From an uncultured bacterium (GTDB lineage: Bacteria; AUK180), in assembly GCA_937863565.1 (NCBI GenBank), contig CALMGJ010000037.1, forward strand, positions 62,001 to 87,045: 25,045 nt of DNA, given 5' to 3'. Positions 6,501-25,045 of the stretch are shown one piece after another. The notes under the pieces are model-generated. The model was not told the DNA's origin. It saw nothing but the letters and a program-made list of their open reading frames with translations, and did not search any database. The translations under genes were made by a program, and so were the position numbers. Position 1 is the stretch's first letter. Each line of letters opens with the position of its first letter.

Positions 6501-7912
6501 TGGCCGGAAGGAAAATGAACATTCTGATCGTTGACGATGAAATGCATACGGTCGATATCATAGCGGAGACATTAGCGGGATGCGATCTTGGAATATTCAA
6601 GGCTTACGATAAGAACGGAGCACTGAAGGCCATCGCGTCCTCCGATATCGACATAGTCGTGACCGATCTGAAACTTAAGAACGAATCCGGGATCGAAGTC
6701 GTGGAAACCCTGAAAAAAAGATATCCATCGTCGCTGGCGATCGTCATCACCGCATATGCCACGGTGGATTCCGCGGTCGAAGCGATGAAGAAGGGGGCTT
6801 ACGATTACATAACCAAACCCTTCCGTCCGGAGTATGTGAAAATGATCATCGAGCGCGCACTCGAGAATATAAGGCTTTCAAAGAAGATCAAGGACCTTGA
6901 GCTCATCATCGGGCAGCATGAACAGTTCTCCGGTATAATAGGAAGATCGGCGGTGATGAAAGAAGTATTCGAACAGATCGATCTTGCAGCGAGCACAGAT
7001 TCGAATGTTCTCATTTTCGGGGAAAGCGGAACGGGAAAGGAATTGGCGGCAAAAGCGATACACAAAAAAAGCGCAAGGAGCACAAAGCCCTTCATCGTCA
7101 AGGATTGCGGAATAGGGACGAGAGAACTCCTTGCATCAGAACTCTTCGGTTATGTTAAGGGCGCATTTACGGGCGCAAATGAAACAAAAAAAGGACTTTT
7201 CGAACTCGCTGAGCAGGGCACTCTGTTTCTCGATGAGATATCAACACTTGATGTCGATCTTCAATCCCATCTTCTTAGGGCCATACAGGAACGGGAGATC
7301 CGCCCGGTCGGTGCAGGGCATTTTAAAAAGATAGACGTAAGATTCATCGCGGCTACGAACAAGGACCTTTCCGTTCTTATCGGGGGAGGCTCATTCAGGC
7401 AGGACCTTTATTTCAGGATAAACGTGATCAATATAAATCTGCCGCCATTACGCGCTCGCCGTGACGATATACCCCTTCTTCTGGATTATTTCGTCAATAA
7501 ATATTCCCATGCGCTCGGGAAAAAAGTAGAGAGGACAGAAAAAGAAGTACTTGATATCTTCATGAGATATCCTTGGCCGGGAAATGTCAGAGAACTTGAG
7601 AATGCTGTGGAAAGGGCGGTCCTTTTCATGAAGGAAGGGATATTGACCGCTAAATGCATACCTGAGGCGATACTCAGGCCTGATCCCGAAGCCTCGCTCA
7701 TGCCAAATGAGGGCAATTCTTCGAAAGGGATCTTGAAAAACCTCTATGAGGTCGAAAAGGAGCATATCCTCGACACTTTGAAGAAATGCGGCGGAAATCA
7801 GAAGAGATGTTCAGAAGTTCTGGGGATCAGCAGAAAAACACTTTGGGAAAAATTAAAAAAATATGGCATAAAAAGTGTAAAGAATTTTGAGGCCGAAGGA
7901 GGTCCGCAATGA
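6497..7912 (+). CDS. Sigma54-dependent response regulator (NtrC/AtoC family: REC-AAA+-Fis HTH)
   Basis: REC (ILIVDDE, VVTDLKL, YITKPF), Walker A GESGTGKE, intact GAFTGA, Walker B LFLDEI, FRQDLYFRIN, WPGNVREL, C-terminal LGISRKTLWEKLKKYG. ATGA overlap with the kinase stop. Confidence 0.96.
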   Translation: MMAGRKMNILIVDDEMHTVDIIAETLAGCDLGIFKAYDKNGALKAIASSDIDIVVTDLKLKNESGIEVVETLKKRYPSSLAIVITAYATVDSAVEAMKKGAYDYITKPFRPEYVKMIIERALENIRLSKKIKDLELIIGQHEQFSGIIGRSAVMKEVFEQIDLAASTDSNVLIFGESGTGKELAAKAIHKKSARSTKPFIVKDCGIGTRELLASELFGYVKGAFTGANETKKGLFELAEQGTLFLDEISTLDVDLQSHLLRAIQEREIRPVGAGHFKKIDVRFIAATNKDLSVLIGGGSFRQDLYFRINVININLPPLRARRDDIPLLLDYFVNKYSHALGKKVERTEKEVLDIFMRYPWPGNVRELENAVERAVLFMKEGILTAKCIPEAILRPDPEASLMPNEGNSSKGILKNLYEVEKEHILDTLKKCGGNQKRCSEVLGISRKTLWEKLKKYGIKSVKNFEAEGGPQ

Positions 7913-10900
7913 AAAGAGCGCTTTCCACATTATTCGTTATCATTTTCGTTATATGCTGTTACGGCAATACCGACGACATCGTTTTCAAGGACGGCATTCT
8001 TTTCTACGATGTTAATATGAGGGGAGAGACCTACGAATTCGTAGTGAAGATCGAATCCCTGGAACCGGAGATCGTCTTCAGATGGGTCATGCCTTCCAAG
8101 GACCTTGCCGCCCGGGCGATCATTTCCAAAGAGAATATACTGAACGCAAAAAACCAGAAAACATATTTCTCCAATTATGATTATGAAAGATACGGGAAAG
8201 GAACAACGGCCGTATGGCTTTCTAAGATGAACTATCTTGCGCTGAAATTGATGAAATTCACAAAGATCACTTTTGATTCGGGGAGTGCCGAGAAACTTAA
8301 ACTCACAGGTTCTAAAACAGTCCCCGTTACCGTTAACGGGGAGCCCGTAGATATCGGCCTTATAACGGCAAAAAGCGAATCCGGGAAATATCTGGAGGTC
8401 CTTGACGACATAGAACATCCCGTTATCATGAACATGGAACTCGATTGGGGAACGGTCAAGATCAACAGGATATTCCATAAAACAGCCCTTATTGAACATA
8501 TAGGATCGCTTTATGATTCGGGAGATCCGGGAAGTATTAAAAGCGCCATCTACTTCACCGCATATTTCGATCTCCCCGAATTTGCAGACAAGGTCATCGC
8601 TGCCATCGATAAAGAAGATACGAGGGTGGATGCCATGTGGGCATGCGGAAGGCTCAAGCTCAAACAGGCTCTTCCGAAGGTCCTGCCCTATATGGATTCG
8701 AACGATTATAACACTTATTATTATGCGGTATTCGCAACAAGGATGATCAAAGACCCTTCTTCCATTCCGCAATTACTGAAGGTCCTGAAGAAGGAAAAGG
8801 ACCTTACTTCTTCAAAGGCAGAGACCATCATTTATGCTCTCGGAGATTTCAAGGATCCCCGTCCCGTAAAAGATATATGTGCAATTCTTGACAAAGAGAC
8901 ATCGCGGCTGAGCGCCCTGAAACCCGAAGAAGAAGATAAAAATGTCAATTTCAGGTGGACATGCCTGGACAGCCTTCTTCAACTTGCATCTCCCGCTTCG
9001 GTAAAAACACTGAAAGCCCTTCAGCTCGTGGAAAAGGATAAAACAAATCTTTCCCTGATAATCTCAGCGCTGGATAAGATCGAGTTCTCAAATATCAAAA
9101 CACCCGCAGTGAAAAAGGAGAAGAAGGCGAAACCGGGTCAAGAGGCTCCGAAGCCCGGTAAATCCGTCTGGTTCTACGCTAAGGTGAAGGATTTCTACGA
9201 AGACAATAAGATCGTGGTCCTGGGAAGAGGCAGCAATGATATGGTGCGTGAGGATTCCGGGGAAGTGTATTTCTACCATAATGCAATCTCCGGGACCAGT
9301 TCAAATATCAACTGGTCATTCGTTATTGCCAAGGGGAGGATCATAAAGGTCACTCCTGATGATACGGTGATCCATATCACGGACATGTATGATAAGATCG
9401 CCAGCGGAGATATTGCCGAGTTCACTCTTGTGATGCCTGTTGAGAAGGTCGATAATCCGCTTCTGCTTCTGGCTCTCTACGACATTACTTTTAAATCCCC
9501 GTCTGACGACAGACCCTACAATTCCGTCGATGCCGTAAAGAACATTTCCGACGCAAGTTATAATGAATTATTGAAGATGATCGAGAAGGAACTAAAGGAT
9601 TACATCAATACAGAGGATATCAAATCCTACACTTCCTCCCTTACCGTCGATGAAGGGAAATTCAAAGGGATGAACTGGTACGATGCGGGCATGGCCGTTA
9701 CAACGGAAGATATAAGGGAATTTTTTCTTTATGTTAAATACTATCCTTCGAGGTATCTCACCAACGAATATAATTTTGCGGAGACCCTTTATACATGGAT
9801 CATAAATGGTGCAGAGGACACGCTGAACGAACAACGGGCGGATCAGGCTAAACCGGTTTACAATGACGCGCTCGATCTTCTCTCAGAGGGAAAGATCGAC
9901 GAGTCCGCGGAGAGATTGAGAAAAGTGCTCGAGATCAAGCCGGATCATGAGGACGCGAAAAATAAACTTACATTGATAGAAGACATCGCTTATCTCAGGG
10001 AAGTGACATCCCGCGATCCCGATGACCTCAATTCTCTCTATGACCTTGCATACAAATACTGGCGCGCAGGCTTATATGAAATATCCAATGAAAAGTACAC
10101 GATCTGCGTGGAAAAAAAATTCAAGGAGGGCGCCTCAAGGTTCAATATCGGCCGGAATTATTTCGATATGGGTGATACGAAGAAAGCATTCGAGATCTAC
10201 AGTTCCCTTGGCGGCACTTATGAGAAGGAAACTGAGGAAAAATGGATTAAATACACATCTTCCCTCCTCAAGCTCTCCACAGAGAAGAACGATCCGCAGG
10301 CCTTCATCAATATCGCGGACGTTTTTTATCACGATGAGGTCTACGCGGACGCGAAGGATTATTATCAGAAGGCATTATCAGCCGATCCTGATAATAAGTA
10401 TGCCAAGGAAATGATAGGGAAGATCAAGATCCACAATGATGTGGACCAGTATCTCCTCTGGGCTGCCGATTACTGGGACGAATTCAAGTTCGAGGATGCC
10501 AAAACGTACTGGATCGAAGCCCTTTCCGCAGCTATGGAACTGAACGACAAGGAGCTGATGCTGACAATATACAATAAGATCGCGAAAAGTTACGAGAATG
10601 CCGAGATGTACGATGAAGCAATTGAGATATACGGAAGGATAATCGAATTTGACAATACGAATTTCGATGGCTATTTCGGGATCGCTTACGCGTACCAGGG
10701 GCTTCTCGAATACGGAAAAGCGATGGAATGGACTGAGAAAGCGCTCCAAAAATTCCCGGATGACGTAAGTTTTTTGAACAGCATCGGCTTCGATCTGATG
10801 AAATTAGGGCGTTTCGATGAAGCGGTCCCGTATCTTGAACGGGCAAAAAAAGACGATCCGCAATACCTAAATCCGCGCAAGAACCTGGCTGTTTGCCTTT

Positions 10901-13900
10901 TCGAGAAGGACCTCGATGCTTCTGTCCAAATACTCAAGGATGCGCTTTCGGAAGTGGACAATAATGATTACGAAACGCGGAAAAAACTCGGGGAACTCGT
11001 TCTTCTAAAGGATCTCAAGGACAAAAAGAGCACATCCCCCGATGAAAAGATCATCCTGGCCAAAATATATTATGATTTTATGCGGTATGATGCCGGGCTC
11101 TCCGTGCTCGCCGCAGTTCCGCAGAATTTCGAACGGTACCGCGATGTGCTTTATGAAATGGGTAGGATTTATTATCAGAAGAACGATTACGGGAAAGCTT
11201 TGGAGTATTTCGAAAAACAAAAGAAGATCTATCCCAACCCTAATGCTGATAATTTCATCAGCTACTGCAAGGGCTATATGGAAAAGGACCGCGAGAAAAG
11301 GGCCATGCATTTCGGCCGCGGTGAAATGGCCATCTCATCCTACTACTCCGCCCTTCTTAATTTCGCGAGAATAGAAACGAAGATACCCGGATTGGATAAG
11401 CTCATAGAGACCGCCAAGATCGGCTATAAGGCTGCAAAGGATATGGATTGGGCCTATGAGTGGACTCAGAAATACAATTACGGTGAGGCGGTTAAATATC
11501 TGAAAGAAGCGGAGAAGCTGGCATTTTCGATAAATGACATGTACATGCTCGTGGATATCTGCTATAAAACCGCTAATGGTTATCTTGATCTCGGGCAATA
11601 CGATCTTGCCTGGGAATACTACAATGCCGCCGTGAAATACCGGAAAGCAGTGAACGCGGACGATAAGGATACCGTATTGGACCAGTGTTTTAAATATTAT
11701 TATACGTCGATCGGAGATTTCAACAAGGCGCTTGAATACGCCGAAAAGAACCTCAAAAGAGTTCAGAGGGATTTCCTGTACAATGACCTCGGGATCACAC
11801 ATGCTGACCTTGCCGATTGTTATACGAATATGGGAGACTACGAGAATGCCCTCGAACATTACAATGCCGCGCTCGAGGTCTACAAGAATAATCTCAATTC
11901 CTTAAGCGAAGTGTATCAGAGGAAGAACATCATCTACATATATCTCTATCAGCAGGAATTCGATAAGGCGCTCGAGGATATCCCCGCTCTGGAGAAGGCT
12001 TTCATCAAGATCGAGAAGAATGCCGTAACGGCGCAGGATATCTACAATATTCTCGGGCAGACATACCAGTACATCGGAGTCGCCGATAAGGCCATCGTTT
12101 ATTTCGATAAGGGATATGCCACCGCTTCACGCTTGGGGAATAATTACGGCCGCGGAGCTTTCCTGAACAATTCTTCCGAGGTCTTTCTCTATATAACGGG
12201 CGACCTCGACAAGGCTGCCGAGAGGCTTCTTAAGGCCCAGGTGATCTTCGAGAACATGAACGTGCCGTCAGGTCTTGCGCCCGTTTATTCGAATCTGGCA
12301 GACCTTTATTTCAAGAAAAAGGAATACGATAAAGCGATCGAATATGCGGAGAAAGCGAAGACCATCGCCATCGACTACAATTACGGCTACGAGTACAATG
12401 CCGCTTTGCATCTTGAGGCATCGGTGGAATTCGAGAAAGGGAATACGGATAAGGCCTTCGAGTACTGCGCCGAACTCCTCGACCGCGTCGAAGGGAGGAA
12501 AAGAGGCGCTTTTCTCTGGAAGGGAAGGTATCTGATGGGGAGGATACTCTACGGTCAGAATAAAAAGGAAGAAGCTGTGCAGAAACTTGAATCGGCTGTC
12601 GAGGCTTTAAGAAAAACGACTCAATCGATGAAATCAGAAGAAGGACAGCGTTCTTTCCTTAAAGCGGAGAATAAATTCGAAGTATATGAGAAGCTCATTT
12701 CCATTCTCATGGAACTGAAGCGCTACGACGAATCGATCAAATATCTCGAGGAGATAAAGTCCCGTATTATAATGGATACTTTCGAGAACTACAACAAGGA
12801 ACTCCAGCAGCTCAAAGAGAAGAAATCCTCCATAGAGGAAGAACTCCAGAAAGAACTGGAAAAGCCAAAGGAGATGCAGAGCAAAGACAGGATAAAATAC
12901 CTCTCGGAGAACCTTGCGAAGAATGAGAGCGAATTCAACCGGCTTGTTACATCCATCGAGGACAATTATGATGATTTTGCCAAATTGAGAGTGGATCCTG
13001 ACCTTCTGGCGGATATGAAGGACAATATCCCGAAGGACAGCGTGATACTGTTCTATTTTTTCGCGGACGAGAAACTTTTCATAATGACGGTCGGGAACAA
13101 TTATTTCAATGCTCAATCCGTGGCCATAAAAGCCGAGGAACTCGAAGAGAAAGTATTGAAGCTCAGAGCCTTCATCACGATGCCCGGAGAAGAAAAGAAC
13201 ACGAATGAGACACTGGCGGAGCTTTATGATATCCTGATCCGGCCGATCGAACCGACGACCGATAAATACGAGACACTGATCATTCTCCCGTATAATGTCC
13301 TTTTCTATGTTCCCTTTGCCGCGCTGGTCAGCGAAAATACGCCCGGTGCGGTCAAGTACCTCATTGACGACAAGAACGTGACCACGCTGTGCAATGCCAC
13401 GCTGAACGACCTTTTCAATACTCCTAAAAAGAGCAGCGAGTATTCTTTCGTCGGTTTCGGGAATCCCGACGGAAGCCTGGCCTATTCCGAGAAAGAACTC
13501 GAGGATATCAGAAATACCGTATTTACGGACGGGAAGATATTCCTTAAGGACGATGCGACAAAGGAGAATTTCTTCGAGGAAGCAAAGAACTATTCGATAC
13601 TCCATATCTCAACACACGGGAAGCTCAAACCGGTAGCTTCCGATTCCTATCTTCTCCTTGCGGGAACGGAGGAAGAGTCCAAACTGACGCTGGAAGAGAT
13701 CACCGGATACACCGACCTTAAAGGGAAAGCCGTTCTCGCAGTGCTCTCTGCATGCGAAACCGCGCTTGAAAAGAATAAATCCATCGGGAAGGATTTCCTC
13801 AGTCTCTCAAAGGCTTTTGCCAGAGCGGGTGTTCCGGCCATCATCGCATCGCTATGGAAGGTATCGGACGAATCCACAGAGCTTATTTTCACCGAGTTCT

Positions 13901-14034
13901 ATAAGAATCTCAAGACGAAGAACATGAACAAAGCCGAAGCCCTGCGCGCCGCCCAGAAGTCGATAAAGAGCATGAAAGAGTTCTCGAGCCCGTTCTTCTG
14001 GGCTCCGTACATACTCAATGGCGACTACAGGTAA
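7909..14034 (+). CDS. Large secreted HEAT/TPR-repeat CHAT-domain (caspase-like, clan CD) protease, 2041 aa
   Basis: N-terminal signal-like peptide, HEAT-like repeats (AMWACGRLK, IIYALGDFKDPRPV), many TPRs and a coiled coil. CHAT domain: LYDILIRPI, LIILPYNVLFYVPFAALV, FGNPDGSL, catalytic HISTHG (13603-13620) and VLSACET (Cys codon 13753-13755), ASLWKVSD, SPFFWAPY. ATGA overlap with the regulator stop. Confidence 0.93.
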   Translation: MKRALSTLFVIIFVICCYGNTDDIVFKDGILFYDVNMRGETYEFVVKIESLEPEIVFRWVMPSKDLAARAIISKENILNAKNQKTYFSNYDYERYGKGTTAVWLSKMNYLALKLMKFTKITFDSGSAEKLKLTGSKTVPVTVNGEPVDIGLITAKSESGKYLEVLDDIEHPVIMNMELDWGTVKINRIFHKTALIEHIGSLYDSGDPGSIKSAIYFTAYFDLPEFADKVIAAIDKEDTRVDAMWACGRLKLKQALPKVLPYMDSNDYNTYYYAVFATRMIKDPSSIPQLLKVLKKEKDLTSSKAETIIYALGDFKDPRPVKDICAILDKETSRLSALKPEEEDKNVNFRWTCLDSLLQLASPASVKTLKALQLVEKDKTNLSLIISALDKIEFSNIKTPAVKKEKKAKPGQEAPKPGKSVWFYAKVKDFYEDNKIVVLGRGSNDMVREDSGEVYFYHNAISGTSSNINWSFVIAKGRIIKVTPDDTVIHITDMYDKIASGDIAEFTLVMPVEKVDNPLLLLALYDITFKSPSDDRPYNSVDAVKNISDASYNELLKMIEKELKDYINTEDIKSYTSSLTVDEGKFKGMNWYDAGMAVTTEDIREFFLYVKYYPSRYLTNEYNFAETLYTWIINGAEDTLNEQRADQAKPVYNDALDLLSEGKIDESAERLRKVLEIKPDHEDAKNKLTLIEDIAYLREVTSRDPDDLNSLYDLAYKYWRAGLYEISNEKYTICVEKKFKEGASRFNIGRNYFDMGDTKKAFEIYSSLGGTYEKETEEKWIKYTSSLLKLSTEKNDPQAFINIADVFYHDEVYADAKDYYQKALSADPDNKYAKEMIGKIKIHNDVDQYLLWAADYWDEFKFEDAKTYWIEALSAAMELNDKELMLTIYNKIAKSYENAEMYDEAIEIYGRIIEFDNTNFDGYFGIAYAYQGLLEYGKAMEWTEKALQKFPDDVSFLNSIGFDLMKLGRFDEAVPYLERAKKDDPQYLNPRKNLAVCLFEKDLDASVQILKDALSEVDNNDYETRKKLGELVLLKDLKDKKSTSPDEKIILAKIYYDFMRYDAGLSVLAAVPQNFERYRDVLYEMGRIYYQKNDYGKALEYFEKQKKIYPNPNADNFISYCKGYMEKDREKRAMHFGRGEMAISSYYSALLNFARIETKIPGLDKLIETAKIGYKAAKDMDWAYEWTQKYNYGEAVKYLKEAEKLAFSINDMYMLVDICYKTANGYLDLGQYDLAWEYYNAAVKYRKAVNADDKDTVLDQCFKYYYTSIGDFNKALEYAEKNLKRVQRDFLYNDLGITHADLADCYTNMGDYENALEHYNAALEVYKNNLNSLSEVYQRKNIIYIYLYQQEFDKALEDIPALEKAFIKIEKNAVTAQDIYNILGQTYQYIGVADKAIVYFDKGYATASRLGNNYGRGAFLNNSSEVFLYITGDLDKAAERLLKAQVIFENMNVPSGLAPVYSNLADLYFKKKEYDKAIEYAEKAKTIAIDYNYGYEYNAALHLEASVEFEKGNTDKAFEYCAELLDRVEGRKRGAFLWKGRYLMGRILYGQNKKEEAVQKLESAVEALRKTTQSMKSEEGQRSFLKAENKFEVYEKLISILMELKRYDESIKYLEEIKSRIIMDTFENYNKELQQLKEKKSSIEEELQKELEKPKEMQSKDRIKYLSENLAKNESEFNRLVTSIEDNYDDFAKLRVDPDLLADMKDNIPKDSVILFYFFADEKLFIMTVGNNYFNAQSVAIKAEELEEKVLKLRAFITMPGEEKNTNETLAELYDILIRPIEPTTDKYETLIILPYNVLFYVPFAALVSENTPGAVKYLIDDKNVTTLCNATLNDLFNTPKKSSEYSFVGFGNPDGSLAYSEKELEDIRNTVFTDGKIFLKDDATKENFFEEAKNYSILHISTHGKLKPVASDSYLLLAGTEEESKLTLEEITGYTDLKGKAVLAVLSACETALEKNKSIGKDFLSLSKAFARAGVPAIIASLWKVSDESTELIFTEFYKNLKTKNMNKAEALRAAQKSIKSMKEFSSPFFWAPYILNGDYR

Positions 14035-14046
14035 AAAGGTAATGGG

Positions 14047-14063
14047 TGTTACTATTCGAAACA
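14047..14063 (+). promoter_or_regulatory. Candidate upstream activator sequence for a sigma54 enhancer-binding protein
   Basis: Near-palindrome TGTTAC-TATTC-GAAACA (TGT-N11-ACA), about 65-80 nt upstream of the -24 element. Confidence 0.5.
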
Positions 14064-14125
14064 TTGAAAAAAAGTTTGAAATATGGGATAATAGTCCGGA
14101 TGCGATGAATAAAGGAATTCGGAAA

Positions 14126-14142
14126 TTGGTACACATTATGCT
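14126..14142 (+). promoter_or_regulatory. Candidate sigma54 (-24/-12) promoter
   Basis: TTGGTACACATTATGCT: GG (14128-29), 10 nt, GC (14140-41); compare consensus TGGCACG-N4-TTGCW. It lies about 45 nt upstream of the AGGAGG-preceded ATG. Confidence 0.65.
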
Positions 14143-14184
14143 TTACAATGAACAGAAATACTTTTTATTTCAGGAGGTGTGCTC

Positions 14185-14895
14185 ATGAAAAAGGCACTAT
14201 GCGTTTTGCTGGCAGTGTTCCTTTTAGCGGGAACATTCTATGCGAAGCCGAAAAAGAAAGAGGGCCCTAAGGAAGAGCCCAAGATCCAGGCTCAGAAGGG
14301 AGAGTTCCTCAGAACCAAGGATATACAGGGTTCACTCGATCCCAGTCTTGCTTTTTTGGCTGACATGGGCCTCAAGATAGATGAAGCAAGAGAAAAAAGC
14401 GATGCTATCGAGATCGCTTCGTGCGCGCTTCTTCTTTTCTGGGCCGAGAAGATCTCAGGCAAGGAATCCCCGATCATAACGGGAAAGACTTTGCTTGAAG
14501 AGGCTTCGAAACTTGCCGAAACACAAAAGAACCCCAAAGCTCTGGAAGCAGTTGCCAAGATCTGGGGCGATGCTGTGAACGGCCCCGGCGACACGGCCAT
14601 GATGGAAAAATATACAGAGATGGCCAAAGTCTTCCTCGCCGAAAAGAAGGATGTGAAAAGGTCCTATTCCGAAACAGGCTCGGTGCAGGTCAACAATAAT
14701 ACCGGATGGGATATGTATATCTACATTGACGGGTATTATCAGGGCGTTCTCTATGCCTATCAGGACAAAGTCTACTATGGCGTTCCCGCCGGTTCGATCA
14801 AGCTCTATGCTTCGGCTGCCGACGGCACGTATTGGGGACCCAATTACTACACGCTTTCCGTAGGCGGAAAGTTCACCTGGAATCTCTGGCCGTAA
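14185..14895 (+). CDS. Secreted hypothetical protein: helical N-domain plus C-terminal aromatic-rich beta (PEGA-like) domain
   Basis: AGGAGG at 14172-14177 favours ATG 14185 over the track start at 14179. Signal peptide MKKALCVLLAVFLLAGTFYA; C-terminal VQVNNNTGWDMYIYIDGYYQG...VPAGSIKLYA...YWGP...FTWNLWP. Confidence 0.85.
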   Translation: MKKALCVLLAVFLLAGTFYAKPKKKEGPKEEPKIQAQKGEFLRTKDIQGSLDPSLAFLADMGLKIDEAREKSDAIEIASCALLLFWAEKISGKESPIITGKTLLEEASKLAETQKNPKALEAVAKIWGDAVNGPGDTAMMEKYTEMAKVFLAEKKDVKRSYSETGSVQVNNNTGWDMYIYIDGYYQGVLYAYQDKVYYGVPAGSIKLYASAADGTYWGPNYYTLSVGGKFTWNLWP

Positions 14896-14917
14896 TTTCG
14901 GGTAATCGTTAATTCTA

Positions 14918-14971
14918 GGGGGAGGCGTTCGCACCTCTAAAAAGGCGTACGCGTCTCCCCCGTTCTTTTTT
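14918..14971 (+). terminator. Probable intrinsic terminator/attenuator
   Basis: GGGGGAGGCG...CGTCTCCCCC stem (one G-U pair) followed by GTTCTTTTTT, 22 nt after the stop at 14895. Confidence 0.7.
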
Positions 14972-14997
14972 CAGTAAAGAACTCTATGAGGGAAAAT

Positions 14998-16320
14998 ATG
15001 AAGATCGTCACAAAGGTCCTTCTGGGCTTGCTTGTTTTCGTGTTATCCGCGGTTATTCTCGTTCTCATCGTCTCGGCCGCGGTCAATGCCGGACAGAAGA
15101 AGATATACAATGCCGTTCAAACCGCATCCGTTAAAGCATACGAGGATTTCGGAGAGTATGTCAAAAAACCTTTTTATGAAACATACGCTGACGGGCAGTC
15201 CTGGGATTATTACGGAAAAGCGGTCGATCTTATTAAAACGGACATTGATAAGAACGGCAATAAAGAGATATTCAGGGATTATGCCGAAGATAAAGGGACC
15301 GTGACCCGTGAGCAAGTGCTCGAAGCCCTCAAGTCCGAAGAAGAGCCTCTTCATATTTTCCGTGAAGGAGTGTATAAGAACAAGTGCCTGATACCTGTTG
15401 ATTACAGGGACTTCGCCGGCACTTTTTTCCCTAATGTATATTCGGTTTTCTTCCTGTCAAATGCAAGCGGTTCCCGTTATCTTATTGAACTCGAGGATAA
15501 AAAATACAGCGAAGCTCTCCGTTCAGCTATGGAGAACATTATCTTTTCCATTGACCTGATGAATTCAAGTCCGAACCTGATGCTCTATATCGGAGGGGTA
15601 CATAATCTGAAGAAAACAGTCAAACATCTGAACAAGTTCATCGCCGAAAAGAGGAAGGATCTAAGATCGATAGAGACCGTTATCAAGGCCTATGAGACCC
15701 TTAGAGGGGAATTCAAGGACATAATGGAGCTTATTGATTATGAAAGGCATCTCATAAAGATAAATCTGAGCGATCTTTTCTATGAGCAATTGTTCAATTC
15801 TCCGCGCGCGTCCGTAGGTTCTTTTAAAAAACTGCTGGTAAAATTATATCTTGCCAAATACGGTTTTTCGGAGTATAAAGCGATCAATAACACACTGGAT
15901 CTTTTCGACAGGATATACGATAATATAATAAAAGCCGAACCGAGAACGTGGAAAGGCCTTACGGGGGTTTTCGGAGAGAACGACCGCCTTATTTTCAATT
16001 CGAAAAACGATATAGCCAATATCGTATATCCAAAATATGACAGCATCGTATTCGAATACTTTGCACTGCGGACAGAAATAGACATGCAGCTTCTGAAACT
16101 GTATCTGATCCGCGCCCTTTCCGAGGGAAAAACGGCAGAAAAGGCCGTCGAGAACGTAAAAACCCGGATAGGGGAATTTAAAGATTTTTACAGCGGTGAG
16201 AATATCCGTATTGAAAATGACGCCCGGAAGAGGGTCATATCGCTTGTTTCTTTCGGCCCCGACGGGGTGACGGACGCGGCCGCTCCGGGAGATGATATTA
16301 AAATGGAGATTGAATATTAG
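14998..16320 (+). CDS. Membrane-anchored hypothetical protein with GspG-like C-terminal motif
   Basis: Single N-terminal TM helix and a mostly helical body, ending in DFYSGE...LVSFGPDG...DDI. GAGGG RBS favours ATG 14998 (track start 14986). Confidence 0.8.
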   Translation: MKIVTKVLLGLLVFVLSAVILVLIVSAAVNAGQKKIYNAVQTASVKAYEDFGEYVKKPFYETYADGQSWDYYGKAVDLIKTDIDKNGNKEIFRDYAEDKGTVTREQVLEALKSEEEPLHIFREGVYKNKCLIPVDYRDFAGTFFPNVYSVFFLSNASGSRYLIELEDKKYSEALRSAMENIIFSIDLMNSSPNLMLYIGGVHNLKKTVKHLNKFIAEKRKDLRSIETVIKAYETLRGEFKDIMELIDYERHLIKINLSDLFYEQLFNSPRASVGSFKKLLVKLYLAKYGFSEYKAINNTLDLFDRIYDNIIKAEPRTWKGLTGVFGENDRLIFNSKNDIANIVYPKYDSIVFEYFALRTEIDMQLLKLYLIRALSEGKTAEKAVENVKTRIGEFKDFYSGENIRIENDARKRVISLVSFGPDGVTDAAAPGDDIKMEIEY

Positions 16321-16328
16321 GAGAGCTT

Positions 16329-17261
16329 ATGAAAAAGAATATTCTTCTGTTCTTACTGCTTTTTATCGTGTGCGTTAACGTTCATTCCGCCGATACCGGT
16401 ACTGTCGCGATAGTATCTTCGATCGACGGTCAGGCATCGCTGAAAAGCGGCGATACCGAAAAACCTCTGGACCTGGGTGCGGAATTAAAGGATGGCGATA
16501 CCGTTATCATCGGAAAGAAATCCTCTCTGACGGTGCTTTTCCAGAATGGCGCTCTTATGATCTACAATAAGGAAGGCGTGCATTCCATTTCCGTAAAAGA
16601 TGCCGATAAGAGGGCCAAGACCCGGGGGATCATACCTGAAGTAGTGAAGGATTTCAACAATACTTTCAATGAGGAACAAAGAGAGGAAACGCTGGGAAAG
16701 GTACTGTCATTAAGGCCAATAGAGGATTTCATGCTCATTTATCCGAGGATGAAGGTGTTCTCGGTGAGGCCAAGGTTCCTCTGGGACGTTTCTCAGGAGA
16801 TCCATGAGAGAGCATTCATAATAGTTATCGGGGAAGTGGGCGGAAGGGAACTGCTCCGAATACCCGTTAGCGACATTTGCGAAATGGACTACCCTTCCTT
16901 CGCGCCGCCCCTCACAAGAGGCAATATCTACTACTGGAGGATCGAACTTGTTTCCGGCGACGATTATTCGGATGATATGTCATTCACCGTCGTTGACGAG
17001 AATGAAGCCTCGAACTACACCGTAGAGATCGACAGGATAAATAAAAACTACAAGGACCAGAATGTGAAAGACATGCTGATAGGCAAACTTCTCACCGGGA
17101 ATTCACTCTATACCGAAGCGATCGAGTATTACAATAAACTTGCCGCCCGTAATCCTAATTCGATCTATCCGCATCAGGAACTTGCCATCATATATCAGAA
17201 CACATATCTGAAGAAACTGTACGATTCCGAAATGCTGAAGATCAAGGAATTGAAAAAATAA
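16329..17261 (+). CDS. Secreted protein, FecR-like N-terminal beta domain plus DUF928-like/TPR C-terminal region
   Basis: Signal peptide (...NVHS-A). FecR-like VSSIDGQASLK...LKDGDTVIIGKKSSLTVLFQNG; then RPRFLW, YPSFAPPLTRGNIYYWRI, LYTEAIEYYNKLAARNPNS, which recall DUF928-type proteins. RBS AGGAG. Confidence 0.7.
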   Translation: MKKNILLFLLLFIVCVNVHSADTGTVAIVSSIDGQASLKSGDTEKPLDLGAELKDGDTVIIGKKSSLTVLFQNGALMIYNKEGVHSISVKDADKRAKTRGIIPEVVKDFNNTFNEEQREETLGKVLSLRPIEDFMLIYPRMKVFSVRPRFLWDVSQEIHERAFIIVIGEVGGRELLRIPVSDICEMDYPSFAPPLTRGNIYYWRIELVSGDDYSDDMSFTVVDENEASNYTVEIDRINKNYKDQNVKDMLIGKLLTGNSLYTEAIEYYNKLAARNPNSIYPHQELAIIYQNTYLKKLYDSEMLKIKELKK

Positions 17262-17274
17262 ACGGACGGATACC

Positions 17275-19506
17275 GTGAAAAGGATCCTTCTTCTTGCGGC
17301 TCTTGCAGCGTGTCTTGTGTTTCCGGGTTCATTTAAAGAAACCCTGGAAAAGGCCATTATATCTTTCAATAAAGGCGATTACGGGAAAATGTTCGAGATC
17401 CTGAAAAAGGCATCGAAGGCGCTTGATGTCAAAGATCCCGAATACAAGTACAACAAAGCCGTCCTTTACAAATGGTATGGCAATGCCTATATGGGAATGA
17501 ACGACACTTCTTCGGGTTATACGTATTATGAGGACGCGCTCTCACTACTGGAAGAGGTCGGCGGTGACAAGGCGGATCTGGAAAGAGGAAGGCTTTACAA
17601 TAATCTCGGCGCGCTGAACGAAGCGGACGGGGATTATGATTCGGCATTGGATTATTTTGATAAGGCATGCGGAATTTATGAAAAGCTGAACGAAACACTG
17701 GAGATCATGCACACAGAGCTCAATAAGGCGTACCTTTTCGAGGGAATGGGAGAGTACGATCGCGCTCTTGCCGCGCTCGAGGGCATCATTGCCGCCTCGG
17801 CCGACAAAGCGGTGAAGGATGACGATATCCTTTCAAAGGCCTATCTCGCCGAAGGCAATGTCTGTTTTAAACTGAAGAAGTACAATGAAGCGCTTCAGCA
17901 TTATATCAAATCCAATATCCATTTTGCCAAGCTTAAATCGAAAATAGGCATAGCGATGACCTTCGCCAATCTCGGCATAACCAATGAAAAACTCGGCGCG
18001 CTGGGATTGGCAAAAGATTTCTACATAAAAGCCCTTGAGAATTCGGAGAAGATAAGGGGGCAGCTGAGGGACCAGAAGATGCGCGCTACGTTCGGAGAGG
18101 GAAGTTTCTTCGTCTATGAAAAGATCATCACGCTTTGTGTGAACGAAGGAGCCGCGGAAGATGCCCTCTACTATATTGAAAGAGCAAAGGCGCGCGCTTT
18201 TCTCGATATGCTCGGAAATAAGATGATACCCCTCAGGACCAAGAATAGGGAGTTCGCAGAGCTTCTGGACAGAGAAAGGGAATATGCCCTTAAGATCGAA
18301 TCGTCGGTAGAGATCGGCGAGATCGAAAAATTGTCCGAAGAGCTGGACGGGATCTATGAAAAGATCAAAGCCATCGATCCGGAATATGCCGGGCTGAAGA
18401 CGGCTGATGTGAAAAATGCCGCGGAACTCCGTGCCCGCATTCCCGATGATATGATATTCGTGGATTATTTTATCGGTGAATACGGCGCCTATGCCGCACT
18501 TTTCTCCGGAAATCTTCTGAAAGTGATCACTATCCCGATGCGGCCAGCTGTAATGATCGAAAGGATATTGAAATTCAGGTCGATAGCGGTAGAACCCGGA
18601 TGGAGCATTTTCGATTCAAGCTATCAGGATATACTTGCCGAACTTTACGATGTGCTGTTAAAACCTTTGGAAAAAGAGATCAGCGCATTCGGCAAGATCT
18701 GCGTCATTCCACACGGGATCCTTCATCATCTTCCTTTCAATGCACTCGTTTACGAGAAAGATACGGCAAGCAGCGGATTAAAAAAGCCGAAGTTCGCCAT
18801 AGAAAAATATCCGTTCATTTTTTCACCGTCGATCAACATTTTCGTAGAAACATTCAAAGAAGAACAGTCGTACGGAAACATATTAATAATAGGCAATGCC
18901 CAATATGAAGAAGGCTGGGCCGCTCTTCCTAATGCAGAATTGGAAGCTGCCGCGATAGAAAAAAAATTCACCGAAAAGAAAGTCCTTATCGGGAAGAAGG
19001 CGCTTGAAACTACAGTGAAAAAAGAAGCGCCGAATTATAACATACTGCATTTTGCCACTCACGGCCAACTTCTGAGCGAAGAACCGCTGAATTCGAGGAT
19101 CTTACTTACCAAGGGCGGTCGCGACGACGGCAGTCTTACCGTCAAGGAGATATTCAATATGGACCTCAAGGCTTCACTGGTCGTTCTTTCCGCGTGTGAA
19201 ACAGCAAAACTGGGCAGTTTCTCATCGGATACGAAAGAGAATTTTCCTTACGGGGACGATCTTCTCGGCCTTACCAGAGCCTTTGTTTATGCCGGTGTTC
19301 CTTCGATCGTCGCAAGTCTCTGGGAGGTTTCAGACGCGGCCACGATGTTCATCATGGACAATTTCTACGATAATCTGAAAACGATGGATAAAGTAGAGGC
19401 CCTTAGGCAGGCCCAGATACGGTTAATGAAATCGGAAGAAGGGAAAGGCGTGAACAGGATGGTCCACCCCAATTACTGGGCGCCTTTCATCATGTTCGGT
19501 TACTGA
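17275..19506 (+). CDS. Secreted TPR-CHAT domain protease, 743 aa
   Basis: GTG start, signal-like peptide, TPRs (LYNNLGAL, TFANLGI), ERAKARAFLDML. CHAT motifs LYDVLLKPL, VIPHGILHHLPFNAL, catalytic HFATHG (19048-19065) and VLSACET (Cys 19195-19197), GLTRAFVYAG, ASLWEVSD, HPNYWAPF. Confidence 0.94.
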   Translation: MKRILLLAALAACLVFPGSFKETLEKAIISFNKGDYGKMFEILKKASKALDVKDPEYKYNKAVLYKWYGNAYMGMNDTSSGYTYYEDALSLLEEVGGDKADLERGRLYNNLGALNEADGDYDSALDYFDKACGIYEKLNETLEIMHTELNKAYLFEGMGEYDRALAALEGIIAASADKAVKDDDILSKAYLAEGNVCFKLKKYNEALQHYIKSNIHFAKLKSKIGIAMTFANLGITNEKLGALGLAKDFYIKALENSEKIRGQLRDQKMRATFGEGSFFVYEKIITLCVNEGAAEDALYYIERAKARAFLDMLGNKMIPLRTKNREFAELLDREREYALKIESSVEIGEIEKLSEELDGIYEKIKAIDPEYAGLKTADVKNAAELRARIPDDMIFVDYFIGEYGAYAALFSGNLLKVITIPMRPAVMIERILKFRSIAVEPGWSIFDSSYQDILAELYDVLLKPLEKEISAFGKICVIPHGILHHLPFNALVYEKDTASSGLKKPKFAIEKYPFIFSPSINIFVETFKEEQSYGNILIIGNAQYEEGWAALPNAELEAAAIEKKFTEKKVLIGKKALETTVKKEAPNYNILHFATHGQLLSEEPLNSRILLTKGGRDDGSLTVKEIFNMDLKASLVVLSACETAKLGSFSSDTKENFPYGDDLLGLTRAFVYAGVPSIVASLWEVSDAATMFIMDNFYDNLKTMDKVEALRQAQIRLMKSEEGKGVNRMVHPNYWAPFIMFGY

Positions 19507-22786: not shown

Positions 22787-23084
22787 TTGGGTCTGCCCCT
22801 TATGCTCGCTTTCACTTGTGCTGTTTCGCCTCTTCTATAGTGAAGTGTTTCATCGCTTTGCTTCATTATCGAGTTTGTAAGATGAATGCTTCAGAGTTAA
22901 CGGGTTTAAAAAAAGATCATTCATTATTTCTCAACCCGCCGGCAAGCCCCTTGCCAACCCCTTAGCACGTAATAAATGAACTGTTCGATCTGTTTTCTTT
23001 TATTCATCTATCACTTTTTGCTTTCACTGTTCACTGCGGCCTTGCAGTTCATTCCGTACTTCCTACTCCATACAGGGCTTCCGC

Positions 23085-24287
23085 TTAAATTTTCCTCAAC
23101 GCTTCCGCAGCGGAAAGGTTCTTTGCATATCTTGCCGGGAAATAGGCTGCAACGGCCGGCACGAGAATGGAAAGGATTACTGTGACCGGCAGAAGCTCAA
23201 AACCTGCATAGGGTCTGATAATGTAGTTCACCGGAAAATCCATGCCCTGCATAACGGTTTCCACATTTATCCCCACCTTTCTCACCCATAAGGTGAAAAG
23301 GTAGCCCAGAACAGCTCCGGGGATCCCTCCGAGCGCTCCGATGAAGCCGCCTTCAAAGATGAAATTCTGGGAGAGCTCCTTATCCGTCATTCCGACCGCT
23401 TTCAATGTTCCGATCTCCTTCATCCGTTCGAATATCGCCTGCATCATCGTATTTACTACTACGAAAGAGGCAAGAGCCAGGATCAATATCTCGAAGAAGA
23501 AAAGGAATATCCGGTACATGCTCAGAACATCCCAGAGTGTTCCGACCTGCTCTCTTGCCGTCCTCGAAGTAAGCCGATCGTTCAGAAGGGGAGCGATCCG
23601 TTCCTTGACCGCATCCATTTCTTTAATCTTGGAATAGATATAGATCTCGGTCGATGCCCCCTCTATCTTGAGAAGTTTCTTCGCATCATCGATCGAAATG
23701 AAAAATGATCTCTCGTCCATGTCCGCGATCTGCATCTGAACGAAACCGTTAACGCGGAACTTCATCCCGTTGAGGCCTCCCTCGGAAGTATTCGTGGCAA
23801 GAAGAAGTTCATCTCCGATCTTTGTGCCGAGCTTCTTGGCGAGTTTAACGCCTATGTAAAGGCCTTCCCGCTCCAGTTCGCCTTCGACGAGATTGCTTTT
23901 GATATCAAGCACGGTATTGAAAAGGTCTATTCCCATGCCGAACGCGGCCACCGTTTTTGTCTCCCTTCCCAGAAGTATCCCGAAACGTGCTCTCTCTTCA
24001 ACGGAGGTCACACCCTCGACGGCCCGCAACTTCTCCATTAACTCTCCGGAATCATATACAAGTTCGTCGACGGGAAGGAATTTCTCCCTTTCCGCGAAAT
24101 TAGAAGTCGTGACCTTAACGCATCCCGTGAGGATCTTTGTGAAATTGTCGCTCATCATGATCAGCATTCCGTTCATATATCCCATCGAGAAAACACAGAT
24201 GAAAGCGGCAAAGAAAATTGCAAGTCCGGTTAGTATCGAACGACGGCTGTTCCTAAAGACATTCTTTATAGCCATCTTAAATATCAT
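23085..24287 (-). CDS. ABC transporter permease, LolE/FtsX/MacB family (type B, copy 1)
   Basis: MAIKNVFRNSRRSILT, NTMMQAIFERMKEIGTLKAVGM, AAEALRKI; RBS AGGAG. Confidence 0.93.
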   Translation of the reverse strand: MIFKMAIKNVFRNSRRSILTGLAIFFAAFICVFSMGYMNGMLIMMSDNFTKILTGCVKVTTSNFAEREKFLPVDELVYDSGELMEKLRAVEGVTSVEERARFGILLGRETKTVAAFGMGIDLFNTVLDIKSNLVEGELEREGLYIGVKLAKKLGTKIGDELLLATNTSEGGLNGMKFRVNGFVQMQIADMDERSFFISIDDAKKLLKIEGASTEIYIYSKIKEMDAVKERIAPLLNDRLTSRTAREQVGTLWDVLSMYRIFLFFFEILILALASFVVVNTMMQAIFERMKEIGTLKAVGMTDKELSQNFIFEGGFIGALGGIPGAVLGYLFTLWVRKVGINVETVMQGMDFPVNYIIRPYAGFELLPVTVILSILVPAVAAYFPARYAKNLSAAEALRKI

Positions 24288-24323
24288 ATATAGACTCCTA
24301 TAGGCGCAAAGCGCTATTATTAG

Positions 24324-24354
24324 GTGTGAAGTGTGAAGTGTGGAGTGTGGAGTG
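24324..24354. repeat. Heptamer tandem array (TGRAGTG)x4, left arm
   Basis: GTG TGAAGTG TGAAGTG TGGAGTG TGGAGTG read directly at 24324-24354. Confidence 0.9.
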
Positions 24355-24367
24355 GGAGGTAATGATT

Positions 24368-24727
24368 TTATTCATTTCTTTTACTCAATCCATGTTTTGT
24401 ACTGATCAAAAGACTCATTGCCTCTTCGCATAATCTATATGCATGATCTCTTTGCTCTAAACTTATAAAACCGAGATCATGACAAAGAAGATAATAGTAT
24501 TTCAATTCTGCGCATGATGCAATAGATATTTTCAAGAAATATTCATACTCCTTTTTATTAAATCTTGAATCGCCCTCTATAAGATTAGCGGGGATTGATA
24601 CTGCTGCTCTTTTCATTTGAGAGATCAATCCGAACTGCTCACAATCGGGAAGATGTTCAGCCTTTTTATATGTGAACAAAACAAGTTCATGGGCTTTTTT
24701 AAATACGGCCATATCTTCTATTTTCAT
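24368..24727 (-). CDS. Four helix bundle protein (23S rRNA intervening-sequence protein / Avd-like family)
   Basis: 119 aa; EDMAVFKKAHEL, LPDCEQFGLISQMKRAAVSIPANLIEG, FLKISIASCAEL, DLGFI match the family pattern. About 33% GC by hand count. Confidence 0.92.
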   Translation of the reverse strand: MKIEDMAVFKKAHELVLFTYKKAEHLPDCEQFGLISQMKRAAVSIPANLIEGDSRFNKKEYEYFLKISIASCAELKYYYLLCHDLGFISLEQRDHAYRLCEEAMSLLISTKHGLSKRNE

Positions 24728-24744
24728 ATGCTTATCCTACATTG

Positions 24745-24786
24745 CACTCCACACTTCATACCCCACACGCCACACTTCACACTTCT
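24745..24786. repeat. Heptamer tandem array (CACYYCA-like)x6, right arm, inverted relative to the left arm
   Basis: CACTCCA CACTTCA TACCCCA CACGCCA CACTTCA CACTTCT, abutting the stop codon of the upstream permease. Confidence 0.9.
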
Positions 24787-25045
24787 CTACTGGTTCGTGC
24801 GGAGACATTCTGCAGGATGGAGTTCAGTGGTCTTCTTGGCGGGAATGAAACTTGCCGTGACGCTCGTGATGATGCAGACGAACATTGCTACAATAATTCC
24901 CGGCACGTCCCATTCGGCCTTGACCCAGCCCATGACCTTGTAACCGATGTCCATATCCTTATTGCCCATGAAAGCTGAGATATCGAATCCCTTTGTGAGA
25001 AAATACCAAAGGAACAGAGCTCCCAGGATAAGCCCGAATACGGCC
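24787..25045 (-). CDS. ABC transporter permease, LolE/FtsX family (type A, copy 1), C-terminal fragment; starts beyond right edge
   Basis: The frame is open to the window edge: AVFGLILGALFLWYFLTKGFDISAFMGNKDMDIGYKVMG...HPAECLRTNQ. It is clearly paralogous to the C-terminus of 21569..22786. Confidence 0.9.
   Translation of the reverse strand, partial: AVFGLILGALFLWYFLTKGFDISAFMGNKDMDIGYKVMGWVKAEWDVPGIIVAMFVCIITSVTASFIPAKKTTELHPAECLRTNQ

Follow-up and report, generated by a model that had tools for sequence, protein, structure and literature searches.

Why should a gene for a small four-helix-bundle protein lie between two transporter genes, and why should it be enclosed by inverted arrays of heptamers? 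The question arose from an earlier note on the stretch of DNA analysed here (25,045 nucleotides, referred to throughout as the window), in which it was proposed that the arrangement is a transposase-free genetic element that is looped out of or excised from an mRNA, or whose protein binds the heptamers. The genome that carries the locus (G000) was compared with six other genomes of its family and two more of its class. Reading along the minus strand, the locus is laid out as follows.

24787..25045, minus strand: 3' end of the upstream FtsX/MacB-type permease gene, cut by the contig end.
24745..24786, minus strand: 5' arm of six G-rich heptamers (sequence, inverted-repeat search, Tandem Repeats Finder).
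24735..24738, minus strand: AGGA, an RBS-like motif 7 nt ahead of the ATG (read from the sequence).
24368..24727, minus strand: gene for a 119-aa four-helix-bundle protein, PF05635/TIGR02436 (open reading frame, profiles, fold).
24324..24361, minus strand: 3' arm, its C-rich heptamers being the complement of the 5' arm (inverted-repeat search, Tandem Repeats Finder, folding).
24295..24323, minus strand: right boundary, comprising a short hairpin and then TAGGAG (sequence, folding, empty-site comparison).
23085..24287, minus strand: downstream FtsX/MacB-type permease gene, 400 aa (open reading frame, profiles).

The order of parts described in the earlier note, from the six heptamers directly behind the permease stop through the RBS and the 119-aa gene to the complementary array, was recovered in full and at the same positions. 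The upstream permease, the 5' part of which lies together with an ABC ATPase gene on contig C32, ends in TAG (24789-24787, minus strand), and the first heptamer of the 5' arm starts on the next base (AGAAGTG TGAAGTG TGGCGTG TGGGGTA TGAAGTG TGGAGTG, minus strand, 24786-24745). The 3' arm is made up of 4.4 heptamer copies at 24324-24354 and a short complementary extension, and TAGGAG (24300-24295) stands ahead of the downstream permease start at 24287. Both arrays were called at period 7 by Tandem Repeats Finder, and the inverted arms were found in four registers (38 nt at 76%, 33 nt at 85%, 31 nt at 84% and 24 nt at 88%), as expected from the claim that they are able to pair in several. The enclosed gene is of PF05635 only, with no HUH Y1 transposase between the repeats. 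An Rfam search of the window returned no match, the cassette being flanked by permease genes and not situated in an rRNA gene, and scans for promoters and terminators gave results at or near chance level.

Two other regions of the window are recorded here for completeness. A 298-nt AT-rich gap (22787-23084) separates the second and third permease genes, which abut in G001 and G004; the gap contains degenerate heptamers and pieces common to other intergenic sites in G000, and could represent an element that has decayed or has no gene. Additionally, positions 7909-19506, downstream of a paired sensor kinase and response regulator, are occupied by a gene cluster in which TPR-rich proteins of 2041 and 743 aa are encoded together with smaller genes. 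The C-terminus of the 743-aa protein gave a Csx29-like CHAT match, and that of the 2041-aa protein bears a motif that looks similar when read by eye.

The 119-aa protein scored 102.3 bits against PF05635 (cut-off 33.8) and 89.9 bits against TIGR02436 (cut-off 24), and fell below the cut-off of the Avd equivalog NF033474 (28.9 vs 80 bits). The family residues Q37, R40, S44, N48, E51 and E74 are all present, including those of the RxxxSxxxNxxE motif (R40, S44, N48 and E51), and the net charge of the protein is 0, the family median being +3. Its predicted model (pLDDT 96) consists of four helices, and a fold search matched the model to Xcc0516 (2GSC; rmsd ~1 Å, Z 20.5), to BT_0352, and to Avd of diversity-generating retroelements (PDB 4DWL, 8UB7; Z 14.4-14.6 at 14-15% identity), so that the proposed homology of the family to Avd was borne out at the level of fold. 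A cryptic nuclease fold was also looked for and appears less likely, the matches above background being to PF05635, Avd and generic helical bundles, with no HEPN-type fold among the matches listed. The 2GSC structure contains five chains and, by analogy with it, with Avd and with the accessible text of PMC4990558, the 119-aa protein is probably an Avd-like homopentamer. Two paralogous genes in G001 differ by dN 0.11 and dS 0.95, dS being saturated between these and the G000 gene; judged by the dN/dS of the G001 pair, the cassette protein is under purifying selection.

The flanks of family members in general were then surveyed. In all, 153 distinct near-full-length PF05635 genes were collected and ten without 150 nt of flank were dropped, leaving 143 loci with 46 family labels and 84 genome labels, or 83 should L027 and G006 be one genome, a sample biased to high-scoring members. 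Arrays, mostly of period 7 and some of 8-9, were present 5' of the gene at 124/143 loci, 3' at 99/143, on both sides at 85/143 and on either side at 138/143. The corresponding control values among 1870 G000 genes were 83, 99 and 7 (5', 3' and both), and three of those seven genes are themselves PF05635 genes, while flanks of neighbouring genes carried arrays in 11/95 and 24/112 cases. The two arms of a locus also correspond in their unit: in 68 loci the gene's own 3' arm was the top-ranked partner, among 143, for its 5' arm, and 84/143 cognate pairs, as against 6/206 non-cognate arm pairs from the same genome, lay above the 99th percentile of non-cognate pairs. With one locus taken per family, ~24/46 pass this threshold. 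A strong inverted match is missing in 20/85 double-flanked loci. Homologs are thus strongly enriched for unit-matched inverted arrays, which is what the earlier note had led one to look for. The arrangement has a polarity, the 5' arm being G-rich (in 108/124 loci) and the 3' arm C-rich. The median arm length is 4.6 units, co-directional genes flank 92/121 loci, and in 45/58 no more than 15 nt separate the upstream stop from the start of the 5' arm.

The settings in which these genes occur are varied. Complementary arms flank 5/6 of the PF05635 matches examined on cyanobacterial plasmids, including NPUN_RS35280 of Nostoc punctiforme pNPUN02, and two of the plasmid genes with such arms sit inside cas operons. 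The cassettes at L223, L224, L097 and L102 lie within cas operons (cas10-cmr3, cas6-cas4) or close to CRISPR repeats. The family has been reported in cas loci, according to the accessible text of PMC3936711, and that tie may reflect insertion and not a Cas function. Genes for tRNA were detected in 7/20 PF05635 loci scanned, some of them beside the gene, and the PF05635 genes at L196, L176, L157 and L128 adjoin or lie among tRNA genes. With regard to phage carriage, 50,697 annotated phage records contained no match, and a scan of viral contigs with one family member returned three loci, one of which is full-length with arms.

Comparison of orthologous junctions provided a view of the locus with and without the cassette. 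The permease-permease junction is filled in four genomes (G000, G001, G004 and G006) and empty in three (G002, G005:C224 and G007), where 9-16 nt separate stop from start; G003 and G005:C10, which belong to a paralogous permease pair, were left out of the empty-site count, and L026 and L027, which repeat sequences of G001 and G006, were counted once. Since G001, G004 and G006 are of one genus, the filled state may represent one event or two. At the upstream ATPase-permease junction a close paralog of the cassette is present in G001, G004 and G006, and the junction is empty in G000, G002 and G007. The permease-permease junction of G004 holds a different cassette, with 47% protein identity and GTACGAA-type arms. 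The host RBS remains on the right side of the insert, where TAGGAG resembles the stop-plus-RBS of the relatives' empty sites. Additionally, TAG is found on both sides of the cassette in G000, matching the TAGGAG of two empty sites, and is not seen in this position in G001 or G004; it may be a 3-nt target repeat, a weak hint confined to G000. As judged from these junctions, the heptamer-armed unit is an insertion into a transporter operon, and its description as a transposase-free genetic element is upheld by its presence and absence at orthologous junctions, its exchangeability and its AT-rich composition (33% GC in the cassette gene vs 47-49% in the neighbour genes). Rearrangements of another kind were observed as well (G006/L027, at L027:341-560 and 2190-2500; L112). 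In these a segment with the 5' arm, the RBS and the first codons is duplicated in tandem, and a permease 3' end has been copied into the other junction, apparently via microhomology, an assembly artefact being possible in both instances.

The relation between repeat unit and protein was examined at 122 loci. Among pairs drawn across host groups, unit similarity rose from 0.24-0.25 where the proteins were less than 40% identical to 0.40 at 50-60% identity and 0.67 at 60-80% (n=13 pairs), and same-genome pairs less than 50% identical reached only 0.23-0.38. These values suggest that the repeat unit tracks the similarity of the protein and not the host, a link that could be co-inheritance alone. 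AAT-type units accompany 18/23 members of one PF05635 clade and 14/114 other members. A strict one-to-one code between protein and unit was ruled out by a protein-blind scan of metagenomes for the present unit in inverted layout, which gave nine matches; four of these enclose PF05635 genes and five do not, and the four proteins, at 30-37% identity to the one described here, belong to other clades. Some of the metagenome matches (L210, L213, L214 and L215) are long heptamer-like or simple inverted repeats with no PF05635 gene, and a number of them look non-bacterial.

A link between gene and arrays was apparent also at the level of the whole genome. The unit of this cassette was matched 11, 72, 65 and 66 times in the four genomes that have a close homolog, and not once in six that have none. 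Across 151 genomes, in counts that include cassette arms and come from kin that are not independent and from assemblies that often break at arrays, at least five AGT period-7 matches were present in 51/88 gene-positive and 2/63 gene-negative genomes (gene-negative being defined at E 1e-15), or 17/32 and 1/42 for families represented by a single genome, and the number of matches rose with the number of genes (Spearman 0.76). Arrays for which no close cognate gene was found in the same genome do occur: in G004 there are 32 such matches of the ACAATTG type and 94 of the GAGGTTA type, and G000 has abundant unit classes without a resident cognate gene.

G000 contains 132 period-7 arrays in 72 clusters, 116 of the arrays being outside open reading frames. 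They are often chained, with several unit classes combined in a mosaic, and three of the classes correspond to those of PF05635 genes resident in G000. The arrays are mostly unpaired, most standalone clusters having a single orientation. The arrays are mostly intergenic, with 31 in convergent and 15 in divergent gaps, and their G-rich strand is sense in 29 cases and not in 10. The earlier note had regarded the occurrence of such arrays at unrelated intergenic sites as something that would speak against its proposal. This is in part what was found, in that the units of the cassette recur widely at other intergenic sites and such arrays are not confined to this locus. Several smaller observations were made on the standalone arrays. 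Those at C11:174127-174387 and C12:2999-3360, for example, comprise different unit classes in one orientation, chained with recurring linkers and short GC hairpins, and a GCGAAGC-type mini-hairpin is enriched beside standalone arrays (6/116) and rare at cassettes (7-8/143). At G000:C6:19136-20604 (L001, L003), two tandem PF05635 genes each have their own unit on both sides in the same orientation, and behind them other array classes form a mosaic. Contig ends coincide with 31/132 of the G000 arrays.

The earlier note placed the function of the unit in the mRNA. According to this explanation pairing of the arms in the transcript would be under selection, RNase III would cut the stem and free the ORF RNA, and processing or looping-out would maintain the arrangement. 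The minus-strand RNA around the cassette does fold with its arms paired: a 511-nt RNA has a folding energy of -144.2 kcal/mol (z -5.22, with 0/100 shuffles as good), ~19 bases of the arms are paired at p 0.97-0.99, and the mean pairing of the 5' arm in a 1045-nt context is 0.73. The sense orientation of cassettes in operons, their tight fit between stop and RBS, the location of some among tRNA genes and the presence of an RNase III gene in 5/5 genomes are likewise in keeping with processing, as is the 23S rRNA intervening sequence (IVS) of Coxiella, which contains heptamer repeats, the first of them being where RNase III cuts (accessible text of PMC4990558). However, were pairing selected at the level of the transcript, G-U mismatches would be expected to exceed A-C mismatches, and this was not seen on the coding strand of 84 stems (107 vs 97, p 0.53; excess in 34 vs 27 cassettes); the sense duplex was the better in 41 cases and the antisense duplex in 38. 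Consensus folding of four close cassettes revealed two-sided change in only two arm pairs, too few to bear on the question. Moreover, two of the four PF05635 genes in G000 have arrays in the same orientation, as do most standalone clusters, some double-flanked loci (20/85, as given above) have no strong inverted match, and the spread of the unit is left unexplained. Looping or excision of RNA as the defining function is thus unsupported so far, given the even mismatch counts, the equal stability of sense and antisense duplexes, the direct arrays at the two G000 paralogs and the ~130, mostly unpaired arrays of that genome. Cutting of the arm stem by RNase III is plausible, whereas such cutting as the purpose of the arrangement is not supported so far by the sequence comparisons, and maintenance of the cassette as an mRNA-level element is considered rather unlikely.

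Candidate mobilisers were sought in the genomes themselves. A PF00078 reverse transcriptase was found in none of G000 (95.5% complete), G002, G004 and G006; of the five genomes tested only G001 has one, which is retron St85-like (L216, G001:C40), and a reverse transcriptase was rejected as general mobiliser on the strength of its presence in 1/5. The statement that neither rRNA nor reverse transcriptase is at hand to explain the locus therefore stands, for the window by the Rfam search and for the genome by that for PF00078. Three Y1/HUH-like transposase genes were located in G000 (C13:15557-16501, C29:77365-78216 and C30:61637-62500) and rejected also, having short inverted ends of their own, not heptamers.

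Taken together, the comparison shows gain, loss and swap of cassettes at junctions, unit-matched inverted arms, fixed polarity, purifying selection and a genome-level link between gene and arrays. The explanation preferred here, to which an even chance is given, is that of a selfish cassette whose Avd-like protein recognises its heptamers and helps to spread them, which lands between stop and RBS through the action of host enzymes, and whose hairpin makes the insertions tolerable. Weighing against this explanation are the want of a strict code between protein and unit, the unit classes for which no close cognate gene was found and the net charge of 0 of the protein. An Avd-like pentamer would take up single-stranded nucleic acid along some five repeat units and, once bound, could promote the copying of arrays or their recombination, and now and then that of the entire cassette, at gene junctions that are transcribed, with host enzymes carrying out the reactions. 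The arm hairpin would draw the upstream stop near to the downstream RBS and so limit the harm, and cleavage of the hairpin by RNase III might follow as a by-product. The 23S rRNA IVS would be the product of a cassette that landed in rRNA, and the coexistence of the cassette with many gene-less arrays of its unit would be akin to that of RAYT transposases with REPs. A broader version, offered tentatively and with more doubt than confidence, is that PF05635 defines an undescribed class of mobile element, in which a pentamer without known catalytic role binds a cognate 7-9-nt repeat and spreads gene-less arrays and cassettes at stop/RBS junctions.

Much the same picture could feasibly arise by passive hitch-hiking, in which the heptamers are simple repeats prone to slippage, template switching keeps the arms alike and cassettes move by recombination between existing arrays, the protein having an unrelated job and no part in recognising the repeat. 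The strand-symmetric mismatches fit with such a process, as do the association of one unit with distant protein clades, the persistence of arrays where no cognate gene was found, and the microhomology-type events, in which the 5' arm was duplicated in tandem and a permease 3' end passed from one junction to another. The near confinement of arrays to gene-positive genomes argues against it, and retention of an array at all but five of the 143 genes, across 46 family labels, would be hard to maintain without a functional link; hitch-hiking is accordingly viewed as unlikely. Alternatively, the protein may be a domesticated regulator, the pentamer binding heptamer tracts in mRNAs genome-wide to tune termination, stability or translation, and opening its own hairpin so as to control the genes downstream. 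TRAP and Hfq serve as models for a regulator of this type. Purifying selection on the protein would be in accord with such a role, and so would the preference of intergenic arrays for gene ends, the predominance of the sense orientation of their G-rich strand and the description of Avd, in the accessible text of 10.1101/2023.10.23.563531, as a pentamer that binds RNA. However, the cassettes are patchily present, have been swapped at one junction, occur as several unrelated kinds in one genome, reside at loci of no shared function and have a foreign GC content, a pattern that looks selfish and not regulatory, and regulation as the explanation is deemed improbable.

The locus bears on two old puzzles that are joined here at the level of both gene and genome, namely the intergenic excess of heptamers and the function of a very common family, named '23S rRNA intervening sequence protein'. 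Because PF05635 genes and arrays are tied, both puzzles become testable, a candidate ligand being written beside each protein; members from named, non-pathogenic laboratory organisms are NPUN_RS35280, AWQ21_RS15215 of Picosynechococcus PCC 7003 and BT_0352 of Bacteroides, for which a structure has been solved. If the protein drives the spread of the repeat, this would constitute mobility without a recognised transposase or reverse transcriptase. If, further, the family is a class of mobile element, the heptamer excess would be explained, ORF-bearing rRNA IVSs would become a special case, and a source from which diversity-generating retroelements recruited Avd would be suggested.

Among known systems, RAYT/REP and the TIRtron HUH elements comprise few gene-bearing units with flanking inverted repeats and many gene-less intergenic copies. 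The cassette is like RAYT/REP in that its flanking repeat has many gene-less copies that co-occur with the gene, and differs from both systems in its protein, a four-helix bundle in place of an HUH tyrosine transposase, and in its repeats, which are tandem heptamers and not palindromes. The STRRs of cyanobacteria are comparable heptameric repeats. Intergenic heptameric simple repeats of Xanthomonas and Nostoc, with about four units per array, heterogeneous and sometimes in inverted pairs, are described in the accessible main text of PMC4692102, which reports an unexplained over-representation of heptamers in bacterial intergenic DNA and contains neither 'helix bundle' nor 'intervening'; the arrays described here differ in being tied to PF05635 genes, including those on pNPUN02 and other cyanobacterial plasmids. 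The resemblance to Avd lies in the fold, whereas sequence identity is low, the score against the Avd equivalog is well below its cut-off and no reverse transcriptase, linked or otherwise, was found in G000, so that the locus does not qualify as a diversity-generating retroelement.

Searchable literature, with supplements and most subscription papers outside its scope, yielded no description of a gene-plus-heptamer cassette, and this widespread type appears to be undescribed there; the comparison included the accessible parts of PMC10053308 and of 10.1101/2024.02.27.582315, in which the PF05635 family is placed in 16S and 23S insertions of CPR bacteria. The nearest relatives are the ORF-bearing 23S rRNA IVSs (S23p) of Coxiella burnetii, Leptospira and Brucella, which, going by the accessible text of PMC4990558, encode the same family and have terminal complementary arms of ~30 bp, the ORF in the loop and heptamers at the 5' end, at a similar size (428 nt vs ~490 nt for the cassette). 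Conversely, the cassette lies between protein genes, both of its arms are heptamer arrays and it carries an RBS-like motif; the Coxiella ORF is reported to be decaying, whereas the cassette family is under purifying selection by the dN/dS given above, and excision by RNase III is known for the Coxiella IVS, the cassette being known here from its sequence. With a ~30-bp stem around a PF05635 ORF and a location outside rRNA, the cassette resembles an ORF-bearing IVS set in an operon and, at the level of the genome, RAYT/REP, and is a member of neither.
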